From the NCBI GenBank assembly GCA_038882655.1, contig JAVZNT010000003.1, positions 12,411 through 76,410 on the forward strand: DNA of 64,000 nucleotides, in the 5' to 3' direction. Made by a program: the position numbers and the translations under genes. Each line of letters opens with the position of its first letter. Position 1 is the first letter of the stretch. This document shows, piece after piece, positions 7,395 to 46,646 of the stretch. The notes beneath the pieces are model-generated. The model did no database searches. It saw only the letters and a program-made list of their open reading frames with translations, and was not told the DNA's origin. This stretch comes from Candidatus Bathyarchaeia archaeon. GTDB taxonomy: Archaea > Thermoproteota > Bathyarchaeia > Bathyarchaeales > Bathycorpusculaceae.

Positions 7395-9683
7395 ATGGAC
7401 ACGGTGCGAGTAAAAGTTAGAGTTACCGGCATAATTCAAGGTGTTGGATTTCGTCCATTTACATATCGCATAGCCGTGAAAAACGGTTTGAAAGGCTATG
7501 TTAAAAATATGGGTGACGCAGGCGTTGAAATCCTCTTAGAAGGCGAAGAAAACGCCATCAACAGCTTCTTAAGGGATTTGAGGGAAAAGAACCCGCCATT
7601 GGCGCATATACATGAAATTATCACAGTAAAACTTGAGGGTGAACACCAGTATTCCAGCTTTACGATCGAGAAAAGCTCCGAGGAGTCTGAGCTTTCGGGC
7701 TCTGTTATTCCGCCAGACGTAGCCATATGCGGCGAGTGCCTAAAAGAATTGAGGGAGAAGAGCAACCTTAGATATGAATACTTTTTTATAACGTGCACCG
7801 ACTGTGGTCCAAGATACACAATTATTGAAAGGCCCCCATACGACCGTGAAAACACCACTATGCGAGATTTTCCAATGTGCAGTTTCTGCCAAAGAGAATA
7901 CAAAGATCCGTTGGATAGGCGTTTCCATGCGCAAACTGTGGCTTGTCCAAAATGTGGTCCAAAAGTTTACTTAACCACAAGCAAAGGCGAACTGATTTCT
8001 GTTCATGATCCGATAAGGGAGGCTGGTAAACTGCTTGCTGAGGGCTTTATTGTTGCCATAAAGGGGTACGGCGGCTTTCACATGGCGGCGGCAACAACAA
8101 AGGATGAGCCTCTGGTAAGGCTTAGAGAGGCAAAGCATAGAAGGCAGAAGCCATTTGCTATTATGGCGCGAAGCCTCGAAACCGTGAAGTCTTTCGCCGA
8201 AGTTAGTCCAAGAGAAACTGAGCTTTTAACCTCTCATACACGACCCATAGTGCTCTTGAAAAAGAGCTGCAAATACTCCCTTTCAGATTTGGTTGCTCCG
8301 GGTTTGCATAATGTGGGCGTCATGCTTCCTTACACTGGATTGCACTATATGTTGTTTGACAGCGTAGACGAACCAGCCTTTGTCATGACAAGTGCCAATC
8401 CACCCAACCAGCCAATAGTTAAAGACGACGAGGAAGCCTTAAAAACGCTGGGCGACATTGTTGACTACTTCCTCTTCCATAATAGGCGCATAGCCCACAG
8501 ATGCGACGACTCAGTGGTGCGAGTGCATGGCGAAAAACTGGTTTTTATTAGGCGTTCAAGGGGTTACGCGCCAGCCCCTGTGATCTTGAGGGAGAAAGCC
8601 AAAAAATGTGTCTTGGCTTTGGGCGGGGAGCTTAACAACACCGCATGTGTTTTGCTCGGCAACAAATCCTTCATATCCCAACATATTGGCGATGTAGAAA
8701 ACATAGAAACGCGGGTTTTCTTGGAAAGCGCCGCCAAACATCTAATCCGTCTAACAAACAGCAAGGTGGAAGTTGTTGTGTGCGACTTGCATCCGAAGTT
8801 CACGACAACAAAGCTTGCACAAGACTTGGCTGAAGAAAATGGCTGGCAGCTTTTCCAAATCCAACATCACTACGCGCATGTTGCAGCCTTGATGGCTGAG
8901 CACGGTGTATCTGAAATTGTCGGCGTGTGCTGTGACGGCTACGGATACGGTGTTGACGGCGAGGCATGGGGCGGCGAAATAATACTGGGATTAAAAGACT
9001 CTATGGAGTTTAAGCGCCTAGCTCACCTTGAAAAGCAGCCCATGATTGGCGCAGATTTAGCCACCTGCTATCCGCTGAGAATGGCTGCTGGAATATTGTA
9101 CAAAAAGGTAGATGTGAAAGACTGGCTCATGTGGAATAGTAGGCATTTCCCTTATGGCGAAGGAGAGGTTCATTTGATTCTTCAACAACTGAAAATGGGA
9201 CGCTGCACAGTTAAAACAACAAGTTGTGGAAGGATTTTAGATGCTGTTGCAGCTGTTTTAAGCATATGCTTTGAACGAACATATGAAGGCGAGCCAGCCA
9301 TGAAACTTGAATCAACAGCAATGAAAGGAAACGACACGCTAAAATTGAAACCAATAATCAAAGAAGACACCCTAAACACCACGGAACTGCTGCTGGAAAT
9401 ATTTGAAAACAGAGAAAAATATGCTATACCTGATTTGGCTTTTTCCGCGCATGCCTACTTAGCCCGAGGCTTGGCTGAACTAGCCATAGAAAAAGCTTTA
9501 GAAAATGGCGTTAAAGTTATTGGATTTTCTGGCGGGGTTGCATGCAACGAGATATTAAACAGAATTATGCGGGAAACTATTGAGGCAGCTGGCCTAAAAT
9601 TTCTTGTCCATGAGGCGGTTCCACCGGGCGATGGCGGTTTATCCTTCGGTCAAGCTTTCACCGCTGGGTTCTCGTCATCTTAA
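7395..9683 (+). CDS. hypF: [NiFe]-hydrogenase maturation carbamoyltransferase HypF
   Basis: Acylphosphatase-like N-terminus (VTGIIQGVGFRPF). Two double zinc-finger motifs (CGECLKEL...CTDCGPRYT and CSFCQREY...CPKCGPK). YrdC-like and Kae1-like C-terminal domains. Length is 762 aa. Confidence 0.95.
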   Translation: MDTVRVKVRVTGIIQGVGFRPFTYRIAVKNGLKGYVKNMGDAGVEILLEGEENAINSFLRDLREKNPPLAHIHEIITVKLEGEHQYSSFTIEKSSEESELSGSVIPPDVAICGECLKELREKSNLRYEYFFITCTDCGPRYTIIERPPYDRENTTMRDFPMCSFCQREYKDPLDRRFHAQTVACPKCGPKVYLTTSKGELISVHDPIREAGKLLAEGFIVAIKGYGGFHMAAATTKDEPLVRLREAKHRRQKPFAIMARSLETVKSFAEVSPRETELLTSHTRPIVLLKKSCKYSLSDLVAPGLHNVGVMLPYTGLHYMLFDSVDEPAFVMTSANPPNQPIVKDDEEALKTLGDIVDYFLFHNRRIAHRCDDSVVRVHGEKLVFIRRSRGYAPAPVILREKAKKCVLALGGELNNTACVLLGNKSFISQHIGDVENIETRVFLESAAKHLIRLTNSKVEVVVCDLHPKFTTTKLAQDLAEENGWQLFQIQHHYAHVAALMAEHGVSEIVGVCCDGYGYGVDGEAWGGEIILGLKDSMEFKRLAHLEKQPMIGADLATCYPLRMAAGILYKKVDVKDWLMWNSRHFPYGEGEVHLILQQLKMGRCTVKTTSCGRILDAVAAVLSICFERTYEGEPAMKLESTAMKGNDTLKLKPIIKEDTLNTTELLLEIFENREKYAIPDLAFSAHAYLARGLAELAIEKALENGVKVIGFSGGVACNEILNRIMRETIEAAGLKFLVHEAVPPGDGGLSFGQAFTAGFSSS

Positions 9684-9729
9684 GCCATAAACGATTTATC
9701 TTCGTTTGTTTTGCTATCCACAGATAACA

Positions 9730-9975
9730 ATGTGTTTAGCCATCCCCGCAAGGGTTGTAAGTGTTCAAGGTAATTTTGCTAAAGTGGATTTTGGAGGAGG
9801 TCTAATAAGAGAGGTTGACATAAGCCTCGTAGACGTGAAAGTTGATGATTACGTGCTTGTCCACGCTGGCTACGCCATCCAAGTTTTAAGCAGAGAAGAA
9901 GCCGAGGAAACGCTGCATTTGTGGAGTGAAATTTTAGAAGCTGAAGAAAAGCTTGAACGAAAGAATTTGCGATGA
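9730..9975 (+). CDS. hypC: hydrogenase maturation chaperone HypC
   Basis: Starts MCLAIPARV. The essential Cys2 requires the ATG at 9730, not the TTG at 9706 in the ORF track. Lies between hypF and hypD. Confidence 0.9.
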   Translation: MCLAIPARVVSVQGNFAKVDFGGGLIREVDISLVDVKVDDYVLVHAGYAIQVLSREEAEETLHLWSEILEAEEKLERKNLR

Positions 9976-9981
9976 GCTGAA

Positions 9982-11067
9982 ATGTTTGAGCATTTTAAAA
10001 AATTTAGAGATCCAAATTTAGCGAAACATGTCGTAGAGAAAATCTGTGAAATTGCCCCTAGACGTGATGTTGTAAAAATATGCCACGTCTGTGGCACTCA
10101 CGAGTGGACAATAACCCATTTCGGTCTGAGAAGCCTCCTACCCCAAAATGTTGAAGTTATAGCCGGTCCGGGATGTCCAGTGTGCATAACGCCAGCCTCT
10201 GAAATAGATGAGGCTGTGCAACTTGCCCTAAAAGGAGTTGCTGTCGCATGTTTTGGGGATGCCCTCCGTGTGCCCGGTTCTGAAAAATCGCTGTTAAATG
10301 CTAAAGCTGAGGGCGCCGATGTCAGAGTTGTCTACAGTGCATTAGACGCCGTAAGAATAGCTGAAAAAGAGCCGGGCAAAGAGTTCTCTTTCTTCGCCAT
10401 AGGCTTTGAAACAACAGCGCCATCAACAGCCGTAGAAATCCTAAAAAAGCCACCAAAAAATCTAAGCTTTCTAGTTTCCCATCGTTTGATCCCGCCAGCA
10501 ATGGAACTTCTCCTCGGAATAGGCGACCTTCACATAGACGGTTTCATTGCCCCTGGACATGTAAGCACTATTATAGGCTTAAAAGCCTATGAAATATTTC
10601 CAAAAGCTTACCGCATGCCCACAGTGGTGGCGGGCTTTGAACCATTAGATGTTCTGCTCGCCATTTACATGGTTCTTAAACAATTGAAAGAGGGAAGGCC
10701 GCGCTTAGAAAACGAGTATACTCGCGCGGTAACATATGAGGGAAACGTGAAAGCCCAGCAAATTATGAACGAAGTCTTTGAGGTTGTTGGAGGAAATTGG
10801 CGGGGTCTCGGAAGGCTTCCCAACTCAGCCTTAAAGCTGCAAGATAAATACATTGGTTATGATGCACGAGAAAATTTCAATGTTATGGTTAGGCATGGCG
10901 CGGACATATTGCCCGGCTGCCAGTGCCATTTGGTAATAATTGGCAAGATAAAACCGACAGAATGCCCATTATTTATGAAAGCTTGTACTCCTCAAAATCC
11001 AATTGGCGCTTGTATGGTAAGTATAGAAGGAACCTGCCGCATATGGGCGCACGTCTACAATCTTTAG
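9982..11067 (+). CDS. hypD: hydrogenase maturation protein HypD
   Basis: Motifs GPGCPVCITP and GFETTAP, plus the C-terminal Cys cluster GCQCH...CPLF...GACMVSIEGTC. Confidence 0.95.
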   Translation: MFEHFKKFRDPNLAKHVVEKICEIAPRRDVVKICHVCGTHEWTITHFGLRSLLPQNVEVIAGPGCPVCITPASEIDEAVQLALKGVAVACFGDALRVPGSEKSLLNAKAEGADVRVVYSALDAVRIAEKEPGKEFSFFAIGFETTAPSTAVEILKKPPKNLSFLVSHRLIPPAMELLLGIGDLHIDGFIAPGHVSTIIGLKAYEIFPKAYRMPTVVAGFEPLDVLLAIYMVLKQLKEGRPRLENEYTRAVTYEGNVKAQQIMNEVFEVVGGNWRGLGRLPNSALKLQDKYIGYDARENFNVMVRHGADILPGCQCHLVIIGKIKPTECPLFMKACTPQNPIGACMVSIEGTCRIWAHVYNL

Positions 11068-11147
11068 GGACGACGTGACAAGAATTAAATATTATAAAGG
11101 CATAGTTAAGGTAAAGCTGAAGGAGGATAAAGGACGAGGTGAAGAAA

Positions 11148-11294
11148 ATGTCTGAAAAATCCTATGAAAAAGATATAGCCGAATTAAAGGAGAGGGTAAT
11201 ACGTCTAGAAATTCAGTTGGCAGAGCTTAACAAACGTGTTGAATCGCTCAGCAACTATTCCCGCCAGTTATTTGAATACCTCTCAAGAAAATAA
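11148..11294 (+). CDS. hypothetical small coiled-coil protein (48 aa)
   Basis: Not in the ORF track because it is under 60 aa. The ATG is preceded by GAAGGAGGATAAAGG. Heptad-like sequence IAELKERVIRLEIQLAELNKRVESL. Coding status is uncertain. Confidence 0.35.
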   Translation: MSEKSYEKDIAELKERVIRLEIQLAELNKRVESLSNYSRQLFEYLSRK

Positions 11295-11322
11295 AGATGA
11301 AATAAGATAAAAAGGGGACCCC

Positions 11323-11775
11323 CTATACCGGCGGGGGTGGTGGTGGGGCCTCAACACGAGCTTCAGGCTTCCATATCAAACCAAGTATGCCTCCGATTAA
11401 AGCCAAGATGAAACCTATGTAGAACCCGCTTGCAGTGAATAGGCTTAGAATGGAAAATATTAAAACCATAATGGATCCTTTTCTAACCTTGTCTTTTTCT
11501 CCAGAATTAATCATTAAAGCACCGACTAGTACAAGTATGCCGAAGACCAGCCCTACTATGCAGATGATGAGAAACATTAAGAAAAAGGCGCCTATAGCAC
11601 CACTAACACCCTCCATGCCAGGAACCATGCCAGCAAACTGGCCGATAAATCCGCCGACCATGCTTAGAAAAATGGCATAGACCAAGACGAGCACAGACTG
11701 TATGATTATCAATATGGCCCCAACTAGAGATAGCGCAAAAGCCACTGTAGGTTTTTCTCCCAAGATTTTCACCAA
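11323..11775 (-). CDS. integral membrane protein with a C-terminal hexaproline tail
   Basis: Four predicted TM helices rich in G/I/L. Ends ...EAPPPPPPV. Confidence 0.7.
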   Translation of the reverse strand: MVKILGEKPTVAFALSLVGAILIIIQSVLVLVYAIFLSMVGGFIGQFAGMVPGMEGVSGAIGAFFLMFLIICIVGLVFGILVLVGALMINSGEKDKVRKGSIMVLIFSILSLFTASGFYIGFILALIGGILGLIWKPEARVEAPPPPPPV

Positions 11776-11966
11776 ACTATAGGTTCAGGCTACTTGTATA
11801 TTAAATTAACTACTTACATGCAAAACTGTACTTTCCCTTGTTTCAATTATAGGTCAACTATTAAAAGCCCATAGTTGCAGCATTGTTGATTAACAAAAGT
11901 GTCGGCATGAACACATAAGTTTTATAAAGATTATAAAGCAGAATAAAACGCAAAGAGGAGAATAAT

Positions 11967-12209
11967 ATGGCTATCATGCAAGGAGAATGGCTATTGTTTG
12001 GTGGAGCTTGCCTAATACCGTTAATTTGGTTTATTGTTGCGATAATATTGTGCATATGGGTTTACAAGGATGCAGAATCGCGGGGAATGAATGGCGCCTT
12101 ATGGCTCATTATTGTGCTTCTTGCCGGTTTGCTGGGGCTTATAATATACTTAATTGTTAGGAAAGAGGAAAAACCGAGTCGACCTGCACCACCGCCGCCA
12201 CCACCATAA
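11967..12209 (+). CDS. small membrane protein, PLD-nuclease N-terminal (PLDc_N)-like, with a C-terminal hexaproline tail
   Basis: Two TM helices flank VYKDAESRGMNGALW...IYLIVRKEE, the pattern of the PLDc_N small membrane domain. Ends RPAPPPPPP. Confidence 0.65.
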   Translation: MAIMQGEWLLFGGACLIPLIWFIVAIILCIWVYKDAESRGMNGALWLIIVLLAGLLGLIIYLIVRKEEKPSRPAPPPPPP

Positions 12210-12245
12210 AAACGGCTTCAACAATTTTACGGATGGCGTGTTCAA

Positions 12246-12914
12246 ATGTCATGGGTAGAGGAAATAATCAATTTCTTCAACTTTATTGGAGGTTTGGTCT
12301 GCCACCAGAAGCCAGAAAGAACTTTGGTGGTGGGCGGTTACCCTCTCCCGGTGTGTGCAAGAGATACGGGTGCGTATATTGGACTTGATATGGGTTATAT
12401 AACGCTACTATTTCTCAGAAATAAGGATGCAAGTGGTCCCCCTAACTTACTTTTAACACTGGTTATGTCAGCACCCTTATATGTGGACTCTTTTGGACAG
12501 TTTTTCAGATTTTGGACCAGTAACAACGATTTAAGACTTTTTACGGGAATCCTTTTTGGGATGTCCCTTGCACCATTTCTGGTCTACACACTTTCGCTTT
12601 TCTTTTTTAAAGGCAAAATTCCATTGTTGAGAAGGATTCAGCCAAAAAATGCGGATTTAAATGCAAAGGATTCATGGTTTAATACTAAAGCTATAGGAGC
12701 AAACATGCTTATTTCAATTCTTTTATTCACTGGTATTAAATTAATTGCAAGCAGCGGATTCTACTTATTCTACTGGCTGCTAAGCATACCTATAATTTCA
12801 GGAGTGGTTTGGCATTTCTTTATTCTTTTGCCCCTCTTAGTGGCAATAACGCTAGTGCATTACTTTAGAAATAGGCTTAGTATAAAAATGCGAAATTATC
12901 ATGGCCAGAAATAG
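12246..12914 (+). CDS. DUF2085-like membrane protein
   Basis: N-terminal CHQKPERTL...PLPVCARDTGAYIG motif followed by several TM helices. Confidence 0.65.
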   Translation: MSWVEEIINFFNFIGGLVCHQKPERTLVVGGYPLPVCARDTGAYIGLDMGYITLLFLRNKDASGPPNLLLTLVMSAPLYVDSFGQFFRFWTSNNDLRLFTGILFGMSLAPFLVYTLSLFFFKGKIPLLRRIQPKNADLNAKDSWFNTKAIGANMLISILLFTGIKLIASSGFYLFYWLLSIPIISGVVWHFFILLPLLVAITLVHYFRNRLSIKMRNYHGQK

Positions 12915-12915
12915 T

Positions 12916-13986
12916 TTAGCAGATTCTTGGAACAGGGTCACCGAGGGGTCTAGCTATTATCCTTTTGCCACCTACTACTGTTTGCATCGCCACTCCGTCA
13001 AATTCTTTTGTGGCTTCGCCTATAATCTCGGCGTCTCTGCCTTCTTCCGTGGTTTTCAAGAATTGTAAAACTTCTTCGGCTTTCTCTCTTAACACTCCCA
13101 TGATTATTTTGCCTTCGTTTCCAACTTCAAGCGGGTCTAATCCTAGCATCTCGCATGCTGCCCTCACATTCTCTCTTATTGGGATTTTGTCTTCGTGGAT
13201 TAGTATGCCCACTTTTGATTTTTCGCTGAACTCGTTTAGGGCGTCTGCCAATCCGCCGCGGGTTGGGTCTTTAATGGCGACTATGCCGCCAGCCTCGCCT
13301 AACAAACGCTGAATAAGGCGGTTTAAGGGTTTAACATCGGACTTTATTTCGCTTCCAAAGCTCAAACCTTCTTGGGCAGATAAAATCGCTAAGCCATGGT
13401 CGCCTATTGTGCCGGACAATATTATTTTGTCTCCGGGTTTTAGGTTTGAATCGAGAATCCAACGCGCTTCAAAATCGCCCCTAAAGCGTTTAACAACAGC
13501 CAAATTTTTTTCTAAGGCTTCTGTTCTTCTGCCAATTCCAGAAACGTTTACAACGCAGCCACCTAGGCTTCCCTTTTCCACGACCTTTGTGTCACCCGTA
13601 ACAATGCTCACGTTTGCCTCTCGGCATGTCTGCTGCATGCTTACAAGAATCTTTTCAAAATCTGTTAGAGACAAGCCTTCTTCTAGGATAAAGCCGCACG
13701 CCAAAGCATGTGGTTCAGCTCCTAAAGCAGCAATATCATTGACAGTGCCGGAAACAGCCAAACGTCCAATGTCCCCACCTGGGAAAAAGATTGGCTTAAC
13801 AGCGTGGGAGTCGCTTTTCAAAACAATGTCGCCGATGGCTGCGGCGTCGTCTAAAGCCTCGAGGGGCACTTCAAAACTTGTGTTTTCAGCACCGCCAAAG
13901 TATTTTAGAACATATTTTTTAACGAGGTCGTGCATAACTGTTCCGCCGGCGCCATGCAACATCGTGATGTACTCGCTGTTCTTCAT
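12916..13986 (-). CDS. hypE: hydrogenase maturation protein HypE
   Basis: PurM/AIR-synthase-like fold (MLHGAGG, DDAAAI, FPGGDIG) and the diagnostic C-terminal PRIC. Confidence 0.95.
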   Translation of the reverse strand: MKNSEYITMLHGAGGTVMHDLVKKYVLKYFGGAENTSFEVPLEALDDAAAIGDIVLKSDSHAVKPIFFPGGDIGRLAVSGTVNDIAALGAEPHALACGFILEEGLSLTDFEKILVSMQQTCREANVSIVTGDTKVVEKGSLGGCVVNVSGIGRRTEALEKNLAVVKRFRGDFEARWILDSNLKPGDKIILSGTIGDHGLAILSAQEGLSFGSEIKSDVKPLNRLIQRLLGEAGGIVAIKDPTRGGLADALNEFSEKSKVGILIHEDKIPIRENVRAACEMLGLDPLEVGNEGKIIMGVLREKAEEVLQFLKTTEEGRDAEIIGEATKEFDGVAMQTVVGGKRIIARPLGDPVPRIC

Positions 13987-28349: not shown

Positions 28350-29753
28350 ATGTTCTATATAGAATGCACAGTGTGCGGTGCAAAGTTTGAAGCCTATCCA
28401 CCACAATACAGCTGCAAGAAATGTAGCGGCCTCCTAGAATACAGATGTGATAATGAAACGCTTAAAACCGGAACATTTGTCGGGCCTTTCACTTTTTGGC
28501 GTTACAGGAAGCTTCTGCCAAAGGTCAGAAATGTTGTCTCCATGGGGGAAGGAGGAACCCCACTTATCAAGGCGAGAAGACTTGCCAAAGGTATTGGGTT
28601 AAACAATTTATACTTTAAGGATGAGACGCGAAACCCAACGAATTCTTTTAGGGATAGATGCGCTGCCCTAATTGTTTCCAACGCTGTTGATTTGAAGTAT
28701 AAGTCGGTTGCTTGCGCTACAAATGGAAACCTTGGGGCCTCCTTAGCTGCATACTGTGCAAAGTCTGGATTAACATGCCATGTTGTGGTGCCGAGAAACG
28801 TGGATATGGGAAAACTTGCCCAAATGCTGATCTATGACGCCGTAATTGAAGAGTATGGGGAAATAGTGGATGATTCACTGAAAAGGGCAGATGAGCTAGC
28901 CAAAGAAATGGGCTGGTATCAAGGGTCTGCAGAGTTTAATCCGCTATCAATAGAAGCCCTAAAAACCATTGCCTACGAAGTTTACGAGCAAATTGGCGTC
29001 CCAGACTGGTTGATTGCTTCTATGGGAAGTGGTGGGACGTTATATGCTATTTGGAAAGGGTTTAAGGAGCTTGAAATAAGAGGCGAAGTAAAATCCATCC
29101 CAAAGATGGTTGGCGTTCAAGCTGAAGGCTGTTCACCAATTGTAAACGCGTATATGCAAAATATTCATGAGCTAACTCTCAAAACTAAACCTTCAACTCA
29201 CGCTCTTGCCATCCTCGTTAAAAGGCCGTGGTATGGTAAATTAGCCATCAAAGCAATCAAAGAATCTATAGGAATGGCTATATCAGTTTCAGACGAAGAA
29301 ATTTTCTCTGCGGAACAGGAAATTGCAAAACTTGAGGGTGTCTTCGCTGAACCAGCAAGCGCAGCAACATACGGGGCACTTAAGAAACTTGTAAACCAAC
29401 ATGTAATTGGCAAAAAGGACAAGATTGTATGCTTGATAACTGGAAGCGGACTTAAAGCAACAGACATCCTCCAAATTTTAACTAAGAGAAAGAAAACGGC
29501 TATTGTTGGATTAGAGCTTAGTACAAAAGAGAAAATATTGAGGATCCTATGTGAAAATGATGCTTACGGCTATGAATTATGGAAAAAACTCGGAAAAGTG
29601 ATGACGAGGGCAGCAATTTACCAACATTTAAGCGAATTATCAAAAAACGGGTTGGTCTCAAGTTATGAGAAAGATGGGCGAAAATATTTCAAAATAACAA
29701 AACGTGGAATTAAAGCTATTCATGCATTCGAGGATCTAAAACTTTTGTTATAG
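28350..29753 (+). CDS. threonine-synthase-like (PLP fold type II) protein lacking the Schiff-base lysine, fused to a C-terminal PadR-like winged helix
   Basis: N-terminal zinc ribbon CTVCG...CKKCSG. ThrC-like FKDETRNPTNSFRDRCAAL, where Arg101 (AGG, 28650-28652) replaces the PLP lysine. TNGNLGAS and MGSGGT loops are retained. The C-terminal approximately 80 aa (KILRILCENDAYGYELWKKL...IYQHLSELSKNGLVSSYEKDGRKYFKITKRG) are PadR-like. Confidence 0.75.
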   Translation: MFYIECTVCGAKFEAYPPQYSCKKCSGLLEYRCDNETLKTGTFVGPFTFWRYRKLLPKVRNVVSMGEGGTPLIKARRLAKGIGLNNLYFKDETRNPTNSFRDRCAALIVSNAVDLKYKSVACATNGNLGASLAAYCAKSGLTCHVVVPRNVDMGKLAQMLIYDAVIEEYGEIVDDSLKRADELAKEMGWYQGSAEFNPLSIEALKTIAYEVYEQIGVPDWLIASMGSGGTLYAIWKGFKELEIRGEVKSIPKMVGVQAEGCSPIVNAYMQNIHELTLKTKPSTHALAILVKRPWYGKLAIKAIKESIGMAISVSDEEIFSAEQEIAKLEGVFAEPASAATYGALKKLVNQHVIGKKDKIVCLITGSGLKATDILQILTKRKKTAIVGLELSTKEKILRILCENDAYGYELWKKLGKVMTRAAIYQHLSELSKNGLVSSYEKDGRKYFKITKRGIKAIHAFEDLKLLL

Positions 29754-39280: not shown

Positions 39281-39353
39281 GCCGGGGTGGCCGAACGGTT
39301 CAGGCGGCTGCCTGCAGAGCAGCTATATGTGGGTTCAACTCCCACCCCCGGCT
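39281..39353 (+). tRNA. tRNA-Cys (GCA)
   Basis: Cloverleaf folded by hand. Acceptor GCCGGGG/CCCCGGC, anticodon stem GCTGC/GCAGC with loop CTGCAGA (anticodon GCA, G37), T arm GTGGG-TTCAACT-CCCAC, discriminator U73. No intron and no encoded CCA. Confidence 0.9.
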
Positions 39354-39361
39354 CTGCACTG
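39332..39361 (+). repeat. tRNA-Cys 3' end plus 8 nt of downstream flank (copy 1 of a degenerate direct repeat, candidate att site)
   Basis: GGTTCAACTCCCACCCCCGGCTCTGCACTG. A partial second copy lies at 44253-44279. Confidence 0.5.
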
Positions 39362-39527: not shown

Positions 39528-39682
39528 TTAATGTTTTTGCGGTACTCTAAAGTGGTGTTCCGATGTTTAAAAGCAGCATTGATGTCGTTAAAGGGAGGCG
39601 CATTAGGAAGTCTTCTTTAAAGTCTAATCGGTTAGGGAAAGCTTTTCTAAAAGCATGCGCACTGTTTATATGGTCTGTCAGC

Positions 39683-42600
39683 ATGCCTGAGGGCTTGAAG
39701 GTTGAGCGTTTTCTTCGTCAAGCGGAAAAAATGGAAGGAAAGTATGAGTGGCTGGAAGCTGCTGAGTCCTACAAGAAAGCGTTGAGTCTGTTGCCGCCAC
39801 GCGAATTTCTTAAGGTAGGCGACGTGTACGAGCATATAAGCTATGCTTTTTATCGAGCAGCAATGCAATCTGGGAGTTTAAACGAATTTAGGAGCAGGAT
39901 GAGCCAAGCTGTTGTTAATTGCGAGCGGGCAAGAGCTTCATATGCTAAGCTGAGCACTGCCAAAAGATTACCTCTGATGCTTCGTTGCGATGCCATGGTC
40001 GCATTGGCACATTATTGGCTTGGGTCTTCAGTGTCGGAAAGAAAAAAGCATGCGGATGAATGTTGGCAATTGACAATAAAAGCTCTCGAATTATTCAAGG
40101 AGTCTTCAAACGCTAGAGAATATGGCTTAACTTACAACAGGTTCACAACAAGCGTTCTTTTTGGGTTCTTTGCAGAATGGGATTATGAGACCCGAAGAAA
40201 AAAAGCTACAGAAGCTATAGAAAGCGGAGAGCAGGCAGTTAAGTTTCTTTCCACACGTGGCAATTCTCGCGAGTTAACAACAGCCCTTGTTAAGGTTGCA
40301 AGTTTTCGGGAAATGTTTGGTTTCTATTTCCTTGATTTAGAGGCGAGGAAAGAAGAGTATCAGAGAGCTTTAGACTGTTGGCTTAGAGCTAACGAGCTTT
40401 CTGAAGAAACAGCTTACCATGAATTATTGAATTCTTTTGCCATGGTGATGCTTGAAAACCCTGAATGGGAGTGGGGAACAGAAAAAACGCTTGCGAATAT
40501 TAAGAAAGCGTTGAACTACAGTAAAAAAGCGAGAGATAATCTAACAATCGGGCTTGCACTCGATTGGTTGGGTTTTCATGCTCTTTTCAATGCAGAAACA
40601 TGTGAAGATCCAAAACGTAGGGTTGAACTTACTAAGAAGGCCTTGCAATATGCCGAAGATGCTAAACGTAACTATTCGCGGGTTTGCTTCATCAGTCCAC
40701 TTTGGGGTCCTTTGTGGGTGGAATCTCCTCTTGCTGGCTTCTATTTCGACCTTGCTGCTTGTGCAACGAATCTTAACGAAAGACGCGATTTATTAGAAAA
40801 AGCCAGAGATGCATCAATGGAGTTGCTGAATTGTGCTTATGCGTCTACGTATCCAGAAGTCATAATGTATGCACATCATGTGTTCAGCGATGTTTTATTC
40901 TCATTTGCTCATATGGAAACCAATCCTGACAAGAGGCAGCAGCTCCTAGAAGAAGCTATGACACATTCAGATGAGACTGTCAGGATAATCGAGCAGTTTA
41001 TCCCCTATTACTATTGGAAACGTGGTAAGATGCAGAATTCCTTGGCAGACATCAAGTCTGAACTGTCTGATTTGTATAAAGATTTTGAAGTTAAAAAGAG
41101 TTTACTTGAGGAAGCTGTGATGGGGAAAGAAAGAACGGTGAAACTTGTTGCAAAGTATGTGAACTTCTGGGAAGGCATAGGGCCTATTCCACCATTGGTC
41201 GCCAATTTGGCAGAATGGCAATTCCAATACGGAGTCTTGCTAAGTCGCCTCGGCGAGTTCACAAAAAACATTGAATATCTGAAAAAAGCTGCCAAAACCT
41301 TTGAAGAAGCTGCAGCGTCCTTCATGAAGCTTAACCTATTCAGTTACATAGCTCAGTGCTACTGGAAAAAAGGGCAAACCTCCGATGCGTTAGAAGATTA
41401 CTTGACGGCTGCAGCAGATTTTGATACAGCTTCAAAGTATTTCAGAAGAGCCTCAAAGACAATTCCTCAACTGTCACAATTCTATCAAGACTACGCTCGT
41501 TACATGCATGCATGGGCTGAGATTGAAAAAGCCAGACACAACCACAAAACACAGGATTATGAGTCAGCCCGGGAGCATTTCAAGAAAGCTTCCAAAATTC
41601 ATAGGCTGTCGAAGCAATGGAGTTACCTTGCTCTAAACTATGAAGCTTGGGCAGAACTGGAAAGCGCTGAGGCTTTGAGCACAAGAGAGCAAAGTGAAAA
41701 AGCCCTCAAAACTTTCACAAATGCCATTGCAATGTTTAATGAGACGAAAAATTCTCTTCAAGCCCAGCTAAGCAGGATTAAAGATAGAGATGAAATCCAA
41801 ATGGTCGCAAGCATTATTAAAGCCGCATCGTTCAGAACAAAATACTGCAGAGGAAGAATGGCCATAGAAGAAGCAAAGATTCTCGACAGAAAAGGCGACC
41901 ATTATTCTAGCTCGGAAAAATACAGTTCAGCCGCAGAAAATTTTGAAAAAATAATTCAAAATATGGAATCAGAACACTATCGGAACGAACTTGAATTCAT
42001 TTTAATTCTTTGCCGAGCTTGGCAAAAAATGACGAAAGCTGAAGCGGAAGTTTCCCCTTCGTTGTATATGGAGGCGTCAGAGTTGTTTGAACAAGCGAAA
42101 GAGTTTAGCGTAGACGAAAGGTCCAAAATGCTGGCGTTGGGGCATAGTCACTTCTGCAAGGCGCTTGCATCAGGAACAAAATTCGTGGACACAAGAGACA
42201 AACGCCTCTACGCTGTCACTTTACAACACCTAGAAATCGCCTCCAACTACTATCTTAAGGCAGGTTTCAAAAACGCTGTAGAGTACGGAAAAGGCATTGA
42301 ACTGCTTTTCGAGGCTTATATATACATTAACACCGCTAAGAAAGAGAGAGAACCTGAGAAAAAAGTCAAACTTTTCATGATGGCTAAGAAAATTCTGGAA
42401 TCTTCTGCTGAATCATTTCTGAAGGCGAGGCACTTTGAAAAAAGAGAGCAAGTGCTCAAGTTGATCGAAAAAGTGGCGGAAGAACGGACATTAGCTCTTT
42501 CTCTCACCGAGACATTGCATGCTCCAGCTATTATTACGGCTGCATCTACTTTTCCCACTCCAAGTCCAACCAACGAAAAAGCTGTAGGCTTAGAACAATT

Positions 42601-43306
42601 TGAACACGCCAACATACAAGCCTATTTGGTTGCACCCAGAGAAGTAGAGGTTGGAGAGACGTTTGAAGTTAGACTGGATATGACAAATGTCGGCAAAGAG
42701 CCCGGGTTGCTTGTTAGAATTGAGGACCTTGTTTCGTCTGTTCTGAAGATTTCTGGAACTATACCAAAATACAATTTTGATGAAAGCTCGATAGATGTGA
42801 AGGGCAAGCAACTTGAACCTCAGAGAATCGAATCCATCCTTCTTCAAGTCACAGCATTAGGAAGCGGCATCACGCATCTGAGTCCAAAAATAGTCTACAT
42901 TGATAGCCGCGGCAACTTTAAGACGTGTCAAGCCAAACCGACCACATTAACAATTTATCCGATTGGCAAATTTCAGTTTAGAACAGTCAACGCACAAAAA
43001 GTATTTGACTATTTAGCTAAAGCCTTCTCTGACGATTATATGAGAAAGCGGATGCCATTGGAAAAGTCAGGTTGGAGAACGCTCATGCAAATTGTGAAAA
43101 ATGCGCATGTATCAAAGTCAAGTATATACGGCACAGGAGTTCATCGTGGAGTAGGCATGACTGAACTGGAAAGACGAGGCGTCGTTGAAGTCAGAATCTT
43201 CCCAGAAGAAAGAGGAAGAGGCGGAAAAATCACTAAAGCACGCATAGCTTATGAGAGAGATGTGGTAAAGAGGTACATTGACCAGCAGGTTATGAAAATA
43301 AAGTAA
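39683..43306 (+). CDS. very large helical-repeat (TPR-like) protein with a C-terminal Ig-like beta-sandwich and a winged-helix-like domain
   Basis: About 1000 aa of helical hairpins roughly 40 aa each (for example AQCYWKKGQTSDALEDYLTAAADFDTASKYFRRASK). Then VAPREVEVGETFEVRLDMTNVGKEPG...TTLTIYP (beta-sandwich-like). Then WRTLMQIVKNAHVSKSSIYGTG...MTELERRGVVEVRIFPEERGRGGKITKARI (wHTH-like). The ATG at 39683 (MPEGLKVERF) is preferred over the track start at 39563. Confidence 0.75.
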   Translation: MPEGLKVERFLRQAEKMEGKYEWLEAAESYKKALSLLPPREFLKVGDVYEHISYAFYRAAMQSGSLNEFRSRMSQAVVNCERARASYAKLSTAKRLPLMLRCDAMVALAHYWLGSSVSERKKHADECWQLTIKALELFKESSNAREYGLTYNRFTTSVLFGFFAEWDYETRRKKATEAIESGEQAVKFLSTRGNSRELTTALVKVASFREMFGFYFLDLEARKEEYQRALDCWLRANELSEETAYHELLNSFAMVMLENPEWEWGTEKTLANIKKALNYSKKARDNLTIGLALDWLGFHALFNAETCEDPKRRVELTKKALQYAEDAKRNYSRVCFISPLWGPLWVESPLAGFYFDLAACATNLNERRDLLEKARDASMELLNCAYASTYPEVIMYAHHVFSDVLFSFAHMETNPDKRQQLLEEAMTHSDETVRIIEQFIPYYYWKRGKMQNSLADIKSELSDLYKDFEVKKSLLEEAVMGKERTVKLVAKYVNFWEGIGPIPPLVANLAEWQFQYGVLLSRLGEFTKNIEYLKKAAKTFEEAAASFMKLNLFSYIAQCYWKKGQTSDALEDYLTAAADFDTASKYFRRASKTIPQLSQFYQDYARYMHAWAEIEKARHNHKTQDYESAREHFKKASKIHRLSKQWSYLALNYEAWAELESAEALSTREQSEKALKTFTNAIAMFNETKNSLQAQLSRIKDRDEIQMVASIIKAASFRTKYCRGRMAIEEAKILDRKGDHYSSSEKYSSAAENFEKIIQNMESEHYRNELEFILILCRAWQKMTKAEAEVSPSLYMEASELFEQAKEFSVDERSKMLALGHSHFCKALASGTKFVDTRDKRLYAVTLQHLEIASNYYLKAGFKNAVEYGKGIELLFEAYIYINTAKKEREPEKKVKLFMMAKKILESSAESFLKARHFEKREQVLKLIEKVAEERTLALSLTETLHAPAIITAASTFPTPSPTNEKAVGLEQFEHANIQAYLVAPREVEVGETFEVRLDMTNVGKEPGLLVRIEDLVSSVLKISGTIPKYNFDESSIDVKGKQLEPQRIESILLQVTALGSGITHLSPKIVYIDSRGNFKTCQAKPTTLTIYPIGKFQFRTVNAQKVFDYLAKAFSDDYMRKRMPLEKSGWRTLMQIVKNAHVSKSSIYGTGVHRGVGMTELERRGVVEVRIFPEERGRGGKITKARIAYERDVVKRYIDQQVMKIK

Positions 43307-43528: not shown

Positions 43529-44041
43529 ATGAAAGGAAAAATATTACTAGTCATACCCGTTGCACTCTTAGCATTGTCAATTATTCCAGCGAAGGCGGCT
43601 CCTACTTGGTACAATAAAGCTGAAATGGAAATAACAGGCTTTACGTTTATGGGACCTGATCCAGGGGGAAGAGGTCTCCTATTTGATGTAACTTTTGTTG
43701 GAGTTGCTGCTGGACCTAACATCAAAGAGGCAACTGTGGAGGGAGTAGATCATCTTCTCATGGACTGGGAAGGAATTGGCCATTTAGATGTGTACTTGAC
43801 GGATACCGACAAACAAGGTGAAAAAATTTCAGCGCATATTACTGGACTCGCTGTGACCAAGACGCCTGGCCGCATTGTTTTTGAAAATGCACAGGCAACT
43901 GTCATCAACACGGCTGGTTATCCTACTACTGGCAAGTATACTGACCTGATTGGCACCACTTTCAATGTTGAAGGCTTTATTACAGAACTCTCCATCAACC
44001 CTCCAAGTGGGTATATACACGCTAAGTGGTGCTGGACCTAA
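43529..44041 (+). CDS. hypothetical secreted beta-rich protein
   Basis: GGAGGTG lies 7 nt upstream of the ATG. Signal-peptide-like MKGKILLVIPVALLALSIIPAKA. I recognise no family. Confidence 0.65.
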   Translation: MKGKILLVIPVALLALSIIPAKAAPTWYNKAEMEITGFTFMGPDPGGRGLLFDVTFVGVAAGPNIKEATVEGVDHLLMDWEGIGHLDVYLTDTDKQGEKISAHITGLAVTKTPGRIVFENAQATVINTAGYPTTGKYTDLIGTTFNVEGFITELSINPPSGYIHAKWCWT

Positions 44042-44279: not shown

Positions 44280-44406
44280 CTACCCAAATACGAAAGAAGC
44301 TTACCAGTGGTTTCGGCAAAATGTCCATCTTTAACATTTAGGGATAGAATTTTCTTACATAAACGTTTTATGATTAAACATTGAATGTGAAGCGGTGACA
44401 TGAGCT

Positions 44407-45780
44407 TTGGAATATAAATGCTATTGTGGCGCGACCCTGAAATGTTCGCATGATGGAAACTGGTTCTGTCCAAATGGACACCCAGTATACACTTGTAAAA
44501 AATGCGAAGCGCTTGGAAAGAATACTCCACTTCAATGGGTTTCGCAGTATCAACGATGGTATTGTTATGAATGCAGGGAATATGCTTCAAAATCAGTTGC
44601 GGAAGAAAAAATAGAAGAGGAAGAGGAGGTAGGCGGGGAAGAAGAGGAGTTTCTCGACGAAGAAGAATTTCTTGAAGAGGAAGAAGAAGTCGAAGTAAGC
44701 GGCTACATACTCGGCATACCTAGAGGCAGTAGAGTTGACGAATTCTGTTTCATGTGCAAACATCTGAAATTCACACAAAATAATACGCACATCAAATGTG
44801 GTATGAACATCCCCAGATTCTTGGAACCAGCGATTTCAGAGGTCACCATAAGACCAACAGGCGCAGGCAAGGGGATAAGCGGTATATGCGCTCAAGCATC
44901 TTTCATCTCCGACGAGGACGCCCTATTAACTCTTCAAGAATGGCGAGAATTCATTGAGAAAATAGTTGAAAAGCAGATAGAAAATCACGAAGATGAAGCT
45001 GAACCCATCGAAATGTACCGAATTGAATTCGTCGGCGCAACCACCGCAGATGGAGGTGCAAACGCCACCAAGGTACCTGTAAGTCGCGACAGCATTGTTG
45101 GTGGCCGAATCACTGTGACAATTGACAGCGAAAATGAGAAAGTTTGGATTCATGCTGGAACTAAAAAGTCCGGTTTTCTGAGCGGCTTTGCAAAGGTTAT
45201 AGGAGGCATTGCCGGCTCCATGGAAGACTGTTTCAGTGCGCGATTTCTGAGGGATCTACTAAAACGGGATATAGAATCGTTTAGCGTTGAGAAAATATGG
45301 GCTGGAGAGGAGCCTCTGGAGTTTTGGCAGGTTTTGGATAGAGGCGCAAGAGAGCTATCTAGTCAGGCATCTGAGCATGTGTTAGAACAACCTAAATTTG
45401 AAGGTCCTAAGATAGAAATGTACCTGTTAAAGTATCACATGGGAAGGGCATACGGTGAATATTATACTGGAGGCAGAAGTGATAGCGAAACAAAATCAAT
45501 AACTATCGAGCCATTAAAAGCATCCGTTGAAGAACTTCAGTCAAAACGCATGGTAATCGTCATAGATCACCAAGCAAAAATTGTTTGGCACTGGATAGGA
45601 GACAAAAGTGCACGCCTAATGAAGTTCTTCGTAAAAAGAATACCCTCAGATGGACAGTCACGGAGGCATCATTTAGGCATTATTGGAAGTCGAATAGGGC
45701 AAAGCATAGACGATTATGACTATGTCGTAGTCGAAGAGAAAAAGGAACCAGAACAGTTCAAGAGGCTTTTCCAAGCTTAA
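44407..45780 (+). CDS. hypothetical protein: N-terminal zinc ribbons, poly-Glu linker, unknown domain, and two tandem gelsolin-like repeats
   Basis: TTG start immediately after an in-frame TGA. CKKCEALG...RWYCYECREY ribbon. Residues 66-96 are almost pure E. An internal duplication covers aa 200-311 and 335-457, with IEMY..., (T/V)ID...K(V/I)W.H.G.K.S and EEPLEFWQVL / KEPEQFKRLF motifs. Confidence 0.7.
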   Translation: MEYKCYCGATLKCSHDGNWFCPNGHPVYTCKKCEALGKNTPLQWVSQYQRWYCYECREYASKSVAEEKIEEEEEVGGEEEEFLDEEEFLEEEEEVEVSGYILGIPRGSRVDEFCFMCKHLKFTQNNTHIKCGMNIPRFLEPAISEVTIRPTGAGKGISGICAQASFISDEDALLTLQEWREFIEKIVEKQIENHEDEAEPIEMYRIEFVGATTADGGANATKVPVSRDSIVGGRITVTIDSENEKVWIHAGTKKSGFLSGFAKVIGGIAGSMEDCFSARFLRDLLKRDIESFSVEKIWAGEEPLEFWQVLDRGARELSSQASEHVLEQPKFEGPKIEMYLLKYHMGRAYGEYYTGGRSDSETKSITIEPLKASVEELQSKRMVIVIDHQAKIVWHWIGDKSARLMKFFVKRIPSDGQSRRHHLGIIGSRIGQSIDDYDYVVVEEKKEPEQFKRLFQA

Positions 45781-45794
45781 TGTCTGGGAATTAA

Positions 45795-46646
45795 ATGAAT
45801 GTTGAGGCCATCACATTCCTTGCAATTAGCACAATCTACTGGGTACTTGCACTGCGTTATTATTATGGCGTTTCTAAAGAACTGAGTCAGTATGCGCAAA
45901 AACCTCTAAAATCACCTAAAACTAGGACACTCATTATCGCTATTTACGGTTTCGGGCTAACATTATCTTTCGCGCTTGTGGGCCTAAACTCGAAATCAAT
46001 CCTGCTGTCAGCCCTTCGAGGAGGCGCCCCTATTTCAGCTTTCTTTATAATCCTTCTTTCTTTTTTAAGCCCAATTATCAATTATCTTTCTGTTTGCATT
46101 CAAGCTACGAATAGTGTTAATACTATTTTTCTATCCTCTAGCTTTCTGTTGGCAGTTGCTTCCGGCATAGCCATCCTTATTCCCTTCGGCTATGTCCTAT
46201 ATAAAACTCGAAAAGAAATAGAGATGCGCTTTCAAATGGCTACAGGTGGAATGCCTAAAAAACTGCGTGGAGATTTTAAAATGTACAGAACATCTCATGG
46301 AAAGCCGGTTACACGAGGCATATTTGGAGGGCTTATGGGCTTGATTATGTTTCCTTGGTATTTGTACTTTGATTTATTCAAAGCTAAGCAAGGCCTCGTT
46401 GTATATAGAAAAGCGACAACAACCGAATACGACTGGACTTTCGTTGATTCGTCCCATCCTCCGCCCTTTTATGTTAGAGATGAGAGATTAGAGGTGGATA
46501 TAGGAGAGGCGCTCGCTAAAACAGACAAAAGAACTATAAATCATGCCGGCGTCCCTATTTGCCCAAAATGCAAAAAGGCGCTCATCTACTTAGAAGACCA
46601 TCAAAAATGGTGGTGTACCAAGTGCAAAAGAGCCTATATAGAATAA
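45795..46646 (+). CDS. hypothetical membrane protein with a C-terminal zinc ribbon
   Basis: Four or more N-terminal TM helices, one further hydrophobic segment, then CPKCKKALIYLEDHQKWWCTKCKRAY at the extreme C-terminus. Starts 14 nt after the upstream gene. Confidence 0.7.
   Translation: MNVEAITFLAISTIYWVLALRYYYGVSKELSQYAQKPLKSPKTRTLIIAIYGFGLTLSFALVGLNSKSILLSALRGGAPISAFFIILLSFLSPIINYLSVCIQATNSVNTIFLSSSFLLAVASGIAILIPFGYVLYKTRKEIEMRFQMATGGMPKKLRGDFKMYRTSHGKPVTRGIFGGLMGLIMFPWYLYFDLFKAKQGLVVYRKATTTEYDWTFVDSSHPPPFYVRDERLEVDIGEALAKTDKRTINHAGVPICPKCKKALIYLEDHQKWWCTKCKRAYIE

Follow-up and report, generated by a model that had tools for sequence, protein, structure and literature searches.

A divergent gelsolin-homology protein with cysteine-rich N-terminal modules and a conserved membrane-protein partner gene in Bathyarchaeia

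The gelsolin-homology domain consists of approximately 100–125 residues and comprises a mixed beta-sheet sandwiched between two helices, a long one and a short C-terminal one; its type II Ca2+ signature is formed by an Asp before the central strand and a Glu at the start of the long helix (D187 and E209 in human gelsolin G2). To our knowledge, proteins with this domain are treated as eukaryotic signature proteins (ESPs), and the prokaryotic representatives characterised so far all come from Asgard archaea. ProGel has one domain, lacks Ca2+ sites, and binds actin in a cofilin-like manner (PMC7444086), and 2DGel has two domains with type I/II Ca2+ sites and an intervening WH2-like L-[KR]-[KR]-[TV] motif (PMC7444086, PMC9433394). 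The DWG motif of ProGel and 2DGel distinguishes gelsolins from cofilins, which have a WP motif instead of DWG as well as extra helices (PMC7444086). At its C-terminus, Loki2DGel additionally has an acidic linker together with a (CxxC)2 Zn domain (PMC9433394). In the 64,000-nucleotide stretch of Candidatus Bathyarchaeia DNA analysed here (contig JAVZNT010000003.1; the whole stretch is referred to as the window), the gene at 44407–45780 encodes a 457-residue protein with two tandem domains that are homologous to Asgard and eukaryotic gelsolin domains and are divergent members of the gelsolin-homology (gelsolin/cofilin-fold) superfamily.

Evidence for two gelsolin-homology domains

A first-pass annotation of this gene, made from the sequence alone, had proposed an internal tandem duplication in which each copy adopts the gelsolin/cofilin fold, and both parts of this proposal are borne out. 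The repeats, located at residues ~200–311 and ~335–457, have diverged, and their similarity lies beyond chance by BLASTP (E=7e-4 for residues 196–318 against residues 330–457 of the single sequence), by shuffled Smith–Waterman comparison (z=5.0, with the observed score reached in 2 of 2000 shuffles), and by profile–profile comparison of 22-member family profiles (hhalign probability 96.3%, P=1.2e-9, 115 columns, 18% identity). Every peptide quoted in that annotation is found in its place: PIEMYRIEF at residues 200–208 and KIEMYLLKY at residues 335–343, the central blocks ITVTIDSENEKVWIHAGTKKSG (residues 235–256) and MVIVIDHQAKIVWHWIGDKSA (residues 382–402), and the repeat-closing peptides EKIWAGEEPLEFWQVL (residues 295–310) and YVVVEEKKEPEQFKRLF (residues 439–455).

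The fold assignment is carried by structure searches on two separately predicted AF2 models, by a profile match to ProGel, and by the Asgard relatives of the protein. The full model, built on the family alignment, has a mean predicted local distance difference test score (pLDDT) of 72.9 and a predicted template modelling score (pTM) of 0.62, and the model of residues 97–322 alone, which tests the more divergent repeat 1 separately, reaches a pLDDT of 78.8 and a pTM of 0.79. In both repeats, the DSSP assignment gives the strand and helix order of a gelsolin domain, namely four strands, a helix, a strand, and a short helix. A Foldseek search of the PDB with the full model returned 60 matches at E<=1e-3, and the best 50 of these 60 all belong to the gelsolin superfamily; they are led by adseverin (3FG6, 5.4e-10), Thor 2DGel3 (7C2H, 2.5e-9), and Heimdall 2DGel (7WHF, 1.3e-8), and also include gelsolin, villin, CapG, and fragmin. 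The alignments of the full model span ~260 columns and cover both repeats. Its global TM-scores are low (0.17–0.36), as would be expected from differing inter-domain orientations; single-domain targets give scores normalised by target (TMt) of 0.5–0.7. The model of residues 97–322 matches adseverin at E=1e-4 and Heimdall 2DGel at E=4.6e-4, with TM-scores of 0.70 for ProGel (normalised by target) and 0.54–0.59 for human gelsolin G2.

At the sequence level, the family profile matched one family in the PDB, the Thorarchaeota ProGel (7c2f_B, E=9.4e-4), through the core of repeat 2. When the window protein was searched as a single sequence, ProGel appeared at E=0.57, amid spurious CD3-epsilon matches to the acidic linker. 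The sole recurrent weak Pfam match is PF25466 (the C-terminal MPK1 gelsolin domain of plant MKP1), which is found below threshold in 7 of 22 members with a best E of 0.006, and a further Pfam scan of eight family members added nothing. An exhaustive search of 1.84 billion representatives with a hidden Markov model (HMM) of residues 196–457 gave only 10 matches at E<=1e-3, eight of which lie within the family. Of the two outside it, P0037 (E=1.2e-5) comes from Promethearchaeota, and P0038 (E=5.1e-4), which matches along two stretches, comes from Hodarchaeota, so the nearest relatives outside the family are Asgard gelsolin-like proteins. P0037 aligns with repeat 2 at an hhalign probability of 96.2% and 34% identity, and P0038 scores 20.5 bits on the Pfam gelsolin model PF00626 (E=4.2e-4), just under the gathering threshold of 21 bits. 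Single-sequence PDB searches returned nothing relevant for P0037, and only marginal fragmin and gelsolin matches for P0038.

The two domains retain gelsolin motifs to different degrees. In domain 2, D387, W396, and G398 are invariant and match the gelsolin DWG motif (PMC7444086). In domain 1, D240 and W247 are invariant in the family alignment and the Gly position (G251) varies. The segment ED..S.RYLRDLLKRDIESF of repeat 1 is the most conserved of the whole protein (conservation 0.85), and in the alignment with human G1–G3 it falls on the C-terminal half of the actin-binding long helix of gelsolin G1. Within it, the LRDLLKRDIESF motif may form a ligand-binding surface.

Module architecture, family, and membrane-protein partner

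The window was found to contain the predicted 457-codon open reading frame (ORF), which begins with TTG and whose translation is identical to NCBI MEM3770016.1 (QXG76_02370), a 'hypothetical protein' of a Candidatus Bathyarchaeia archaeon on a 93,387-bp contig of a metagenome-assembled genome (MAG). The TTG start is supported by homologs, whose N-termini (MDYKC...) agree with it, and by the NCBI gene model. Exact matches of window proteins to NCBI MAG records place the gene in Bathyarchaeia and not in Asgard archaea (Promethearchaeota). The gene content of the window is likewise archaeal (ATP-dependent DNA ligase, aIF-2B, HisRS, SecY, HypF, HypD, and HypE). The features of the gene and its immediate surroundings are as follows.

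44394..44398, + strand: Shine–Dalgarno-like GGTGA, 8 nucleotides 5' of the TTG start (direct sequence reading)
44407..45780, + strand: gene for the 457-residue protein with zinc ribbons, acidic linker, putative Zn domain, and two gelsolin-like domains (NCBI MEM3770016.1)
44407..44490, + strand: zinc ribbon 1, residues 1–28, with C5, C7, C21, and H25 (ligands conserved in the family alignment; short beta hairpins in the AF2 model, pLDDT ~80)
44491..44586, + strand: zinc ribbon 2, residues 29–60, with C30, C33, C53, and C56 in PLQW...QRWYCxEC (family alignment)
44587..44700, + strand: acidic, Glu-rich, disordered linker, residues 61–98 (pLDDT ~30; composition)
44701..44931, + strand: middle Cys4 domain, residues 99–175, with invariant C114, C117, C131, and C161 (family alignment; small beta-rich domain in the AF2 model, pLDDT ~80)
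44932..45003, + strand: long connecting helix, residues 176–199, with invariant QI..HE (AF2 helix at 176–195, pLDDT ~90)
45004..45339, + strand: gelsolin-like domain 1, residues 200–311, with ED..S.RYLRDLLKRDIESF at residues 273–292 (Foldseek of the model of residues 97–322; motif conservation)
45340..45408, + strand: variable inter-domain linker, residues 312–334 (low pLDDT at 320–332; conservation 0.47; no WH2-like motif)
45409..45777, + strand: gelsolin-like domain 2, residues 335–457, with invariant D387, W396, and G398 and C-terminal EEx-KEPEQF (ProGel profile match, hhalign against P0037, Foldseek)
45795..46646, + strand: partner gene with a 283-residue product, starting 14 nucleotides from the stop of the gelsolin-like gene

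The order of modules is thus two zinc ribbons, a dispensable acidic linker, the Cys4 domain, a long helix, gelsolin-like domain 1, a linker, and gelsolin-like domain 2. In all three Cys-rich modules, the ligand residues are conserved and compatible with zinc sites. The first-pass annotation had described two Cys knuckles at residues 5–56; the Cys motifs are indeed located there, but they belong to two complete zinc ribbons, the second of which is the best-conserved module of the protein (mean column conservation 0.80 in the family alignment). The linker at residues 66–96, which had been called almost pure Glu, is Glu-rich, but Glu accounts for 20 of its 31 residues; it is poorly conserved and variable in length, is missing from several homologs (P0005, P0007, P0010, and P0012), and is read as a flexible spacer. 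The Cys-containing domain that had been noted behind the linker is substantiated by its four family-invariant cysteines. It probably binds Zn, judging from these residues, and it gave zero Pfam or PDB profile matches and no structural match of its own by Foldseek. In the connecting helix that follows, Q190, I191, H194, and E195 are invariant.

In a word-indexed search, the family comprises ~27 clusters, all of metagenomic origin and without Pfam domains, and every member with a taxonomic label derives from a Bathyarchaeia MAG. A scan of a genome collection gave one locus, a one-domain relative at a contig edge in a Bathyarchaeia MAG, and the phyletic spread among named genomes is therefore poorly sampled. 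The one-domain relatives (P0027, P0034, and P0036; L001 17–331) end directly after gelsolin-like domain 1 and retain the long helix and the Cys4 domain that precede it; P0027 also keeps a zinc ribbon. Four relatives, P0020, P0022, P0034, and P0036, have no N-terminal ribbons and retain the Cys4 domain and domain 1. Because the one-domain relatives contain only the Cys4 domain and domain 1, this module pair is indicated as the functional core. The coexistence of one-domain and two-domain forms in the Bathyarchaeia family parallels the ProGel/2DGel split in Asgard archaea. The ribbonless P0020 (L008 8444–9834) is preceded by an overlapping 93-residue ORF, in the frame of which no zinc ribbons are encoded; its truncation could reflect a frameshift, an assembly error, or a real loss.

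The gene directly downstream encodes a membrane protein which, by hydropathy and alignment, has approximately four transmembrane helices in its N-terminal part, another hydrophobic segment, and, at its C-terminus, a CxxC...CxxC zinc ribbon. A homolog of this partner lies directly 3' in every examined locus of a two-domain member (L002/L003, L004, L005/L006, and L008); the adjacency is kept in five independent contexts, and the rest of the neighbourhood is not conserved. The partner family comprises 21 clusters without Pfam domains, a size similar to that of the gelsolin-like family (27). The predicted cytoplasmic tail of the partner ends in a ribbon that matches in type the second zinc ribbon of the gelsolin-like protein, with the common pattern PL.[WY]...Q.W[WY]C..C (hhalign probability 88.8%, P=2.5e-6). 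A 313-residue gene downstream of the one-domain P0027 was considered as a membrane partner and rejected, as its product is not homologous. The NCBI model of the partner in the window, QXG76_02375, contains 165 residues, or 58% of the ORF; homologs of 260–288 residues align from the first ATG and include the four transmembrane helices, so this model is probably truncated at its N-terminus.

Other features of the neighbourhood are particular to individual loci. Directly upstream of the gelsolin-like gene, a 170-residue ORF (43529–44041, + strand) has an N-terminal hydrophobic, signal-like segment and a weak DUF3237 match (E=0.011), and is not conserved in related loci. Further upstream, a 1247-residue protein (39563–43306, + strand) shows a few marginal TPR matches and otherwise no recognisable domain; its gene follows a tRNA-Cys (39281–39354) and is not conserved beside the gelsolin-like gene elsewhere. 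A 467-residue ORF (28350–29753, + strand) combines a PALP (pyridoxal-phosphate-dependent, cysteine-synthase-like) domain with a C-terminal PadR/ArsR-type winged helix, and would be an enzyme–regulator fusion. In the window (7395–13986) and in L008 (3341–12082), HypF, HypD, and a HypE-like AIRS protein are followed by an apparent ribosomal-protein cluster, which was assigned by Pfam in L008 only; in the window, the small same-strand ORFs before SecY appear to form this cluster, as read from the ORF pattern and from synteny with L008. The gelsolin-like gene pair lies between HypD and HypE in L008, but ~30 kb away in the window, and has therefore moved inside an otherwise syntenic region. On a 120-kb metagenomic contig, a heliorhodopsin gene (L004 20–835) is located 9 kb upstream of a family member.

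Possible function and rival explanations

Actin homologs of the 'bathyactin'/crenactin type have been reported in some Bathyarchaeia ('bathyactins' in PMC8850707), and an actin has been found in an MCG single-cell genome (PMC4571567). The reading favoured here, held tentatively and at slightly under even confidence, is that the gelsolin-like protein is a calcium-independent, membrane-associated binder of a host actin-family filament or monomer, coupled to its membrane partner through the ribbons. The gelsolin-like domains would bind a subunit or the side of the filament through the equivalent of the long-helix face of gelsolin, which in domain 1 carries LRDLLKRDIESF. With substitutions at the type II Ca2+ residues and without a WH2-like motif, the protein would bind independently of Ca2+, in the manner of ProGel and cofilin rather than that of 2DGel and gelsolin. 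The matching zinc ribbons of the soluble protein and the membrane partner may serve to unite the two, by direct contact or through a shared ligand, and the pair could thereby link or regulate filaments at the cell membrane.

Several observations weigh against this actin-directed reading. Possession of the gelsolin fold does not by itself establish actin binding, as is evident from Sec23/24, whose C-terminal gelsolin-like domain has the fold without binding actin, in a protein that also contains a zinc finger. In a MAFFT alignment with human G1–G3 (sequence verified against 8VKH), both repeats have, in all members shown, Arg/Lys in the Asp column of the type II Ca2+ signature and Met/Leu or another non-acidic residue in the Glu column; identity is low and the register may be off by one, and the neighbouring positions contain no acidic residues either. 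The WH2-like motif, searched as L[KRH][KRH][TV], is absent from 22 of 22 members; the activity of 2DGel depends on this motif and on canonical Ca2+ sites. The structural modelling with Foldseek that the first-pass annotation had proposed as a check placed the protein in the gelsolin superfamily, but the HMMER comparison with PF00626 that it had also proposed was negative: the window protein has no Pfam match at E<=1, and PF00626 appears at E<=10 in 0 of 22 aligned members. The long helix of both domains is broken by low-confidence insertions in the AF2 models, and the idea that the zinc ribbons pair is based on one 27-column profile match. Finally, Pfam scans of the window ORFs of at least 300 residues (except SecY) and of several shorter ones revealed neither actin nor profilin nor any other gene of the cytoskeleton, and none was found in the 10 kb to either side of the gene at five related loci.

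In a different role, the gelsolin-fold domains would serve as a generic protein–protein adaptor without any link to actin, within a membrane complex for remodelling or trafficking, secretion, or signalling, as in Sec23/24. Such an adaptor is the main rival and a serious, if doubtful, possibility. In its favour are a sole conserved genomic link to a membrane protein and to no cytoskeletal gene, and the missing Ca2+ (type II) and WH2-like actin-regulatory signatures; the family is also rare and patchy, and Sec23 gelsolin-like domains are among the matches to the model of the Cys4 domain and domain 1 (E ~0.01–0.07). However, the Sec23 matches (~0.012–0.07) are weak, and Foldseek ranks true gelsolins far above them; the protein has no trunk, beta-barrel, or other COPII-type domains, and the sequences closest to it are those of Asgard gelsolin-like proteins and of ProGel, which are actin binders (PMC7444086).

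Two further explanations differ in what they make of the fold. The three Zn modules might be the functional part of a nucleic-acid-binding or transcription/translation-associated protein, with the gelsolin-like domains as a scaffold; zinc ribbon 2 is the best-conserved module, weak matches to TFIIB/Rrn7-type and other ribbons occur in Pfam, and both in the window and in L008 the gene shares its contig with a ribosomal-protein cluster, an apparent one in the case of the window. This role is nonetheless improbable, as all the ribbon matches are far below threshold, the four ribbonless relatives preserve the Cys4 domain and domain 1, the same ribbon type is found on a membrane protein, and the neighbourhood beyond the partner gene is not conserved. 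The gelsolin likeness itself might be spurious, arising from chance motif similarity and an AlphaFold artefact on an unrelated fold, a view that could draw on the missing PF00626 match, the low global TM-scores of the full model (0.17–0.36), the moderate model confidence (pLDDT 73–79), and the shallow alignments. It is very improbable given the three independent sequence links (the ProGel profile, P0037 through the library HMM, and P0038 on PF00626), the concordant structure searches on two separately predicted models, and the gelsolin order of secondary structure in both repeats; the low global scores fit differing inter-domain orientations, single-domain TMt values being 0.5–0.7.

Significance and comparison with known gelsolin-type proteins

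Gelsolins are listed as Asgard ESPs in reviews up to 2026, and neither full-text literature searches nor the most relevant recent papers on Asgard and archaeal ESPs yielded an earlier description of a gelsolin-domain protein from Bathyarchaeia or any other TACK lineage. A pre-Asgard origin of gelsolins was judged unlikely by Akil et al., because other archaea had none (PMC7444086). The Bathyarchaeia family bears directly on this argument, as a conserved gelsolin-homology family in this lineage implies that the fold either arose earlier or was transferred between Asgard and TACK archaea. The gelsolin-like protein also provides a concrete candidate regulator for the uncharacterised 'bathyactins', and the regular occurrence of its gene beside that of a membrane protein with a ribbon of the same type suggests a link from filament to membrane. 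The broader proposal, that some Bathyarchaeia (TACK/Thermoproteota) have a regulated actin cytoskeleton of their own, in which the gelsolin-homology protein couples bathyactin filaments to the membrane through its presumed co-transcribed partner, is speculative and rather unlikely. If it were true, the regulator fold would predate the Asgard–TACK split or have been exchanged between these lineages, and a 'regulated actin cytoskeleton' would no longer be exclusive to Asgard archaea and eukaryotes. A fold and a hypothesis are now assigned to two 'hypothetical' families without Pfam coverage, with relevance for the archaeal cytoskeleton and for eukaryogenesis.

Among described proteins, the closest to the family is the Thor ProGel (7C2F)/1DGelX type, which is the best sequence-profile match and the best single-domain structural match to domain 1. 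ProGel and the window protein have an IDH..K.(V/I)W.W.G core in common, and neither ProGel (PMC7444086) nor the window family, as judged on type II, has canonical Ca2+ sites; the one-domain relatives in Bathyarchaeia also resemble ProGel in having a single domain. Unlike ProGel, the window protein has two domains, three Zn modules, an acidic linker, a Bathyarchaeia host, and a conserved membrane partner.

The fold is shared across the wider superfamily. Eukaryotic gelsolin, adseverin, villin, CapG, and fragmin have the same fold and motif order (N-terminal strand, hydrophobic strand-D, W-x-G, long helix, and E-x-EP-x-x-F), whereas the window protein has two domains instead of three to six, falls below Pfam detection, is devoid of the type II Ca2+ signature, and is 11–20% identical over structurally aligned positions. 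ADF/cofilin proteins have the superfamily fold in common, and the proposed Ca2+-independent binding would be analogous to theirs; in contrast to them, the window protein retains W-x-G, and no ADF-H entry is present among the best 50 Foldseek matches. Sec23/24 differs in its trunk, beta-barrel, and helical COPII domains, none of which is present in the window protein, and Pfam gave no match there to the Sec23 trunk or barrel.

With the Asgard 2DGels (Thor 7C2G/7C2H, Heimdall 7WHF, and Loki 7WHG), the window protein has two tandem domains in common, at Foldseek E values of ~1e-9 to 1e-8; no 7WHG or 7C2G chains are among the matches listed at E<=10 in the PDB sequence and profile searches. It is not a canonical 2DGel, in that both domains have substitutions at the type II Ca2+ residues and the WH2-like motif is absent. 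Loki2DGel likewise joins its two domains to an acidic linker and a small Zn domain (PMC9433394), but in the window protein the Zn modules number three and, together with the linker, are N-terminal rather than C-terminal. The suggestion of the first-pass annotation that the gelsolin module stands in a new context accordingly holds for the N-terminal arrangement and for Bathyarchaeia, but not for the combination as such, which Loki2DGel already displays (PMC9433394). What is already known is therefore the gelsolin fold and its occurrence together with an acidic linker and a Zn domain; what is new is the Bathyarchaeia lineage, the N-terminal arrangement of three putative Zn modules, the conserved membrane partner, and a two-domain protein that, as far as its sequence indicates, carries neither the type II Ca2+ signature nor a WH2-like motif.

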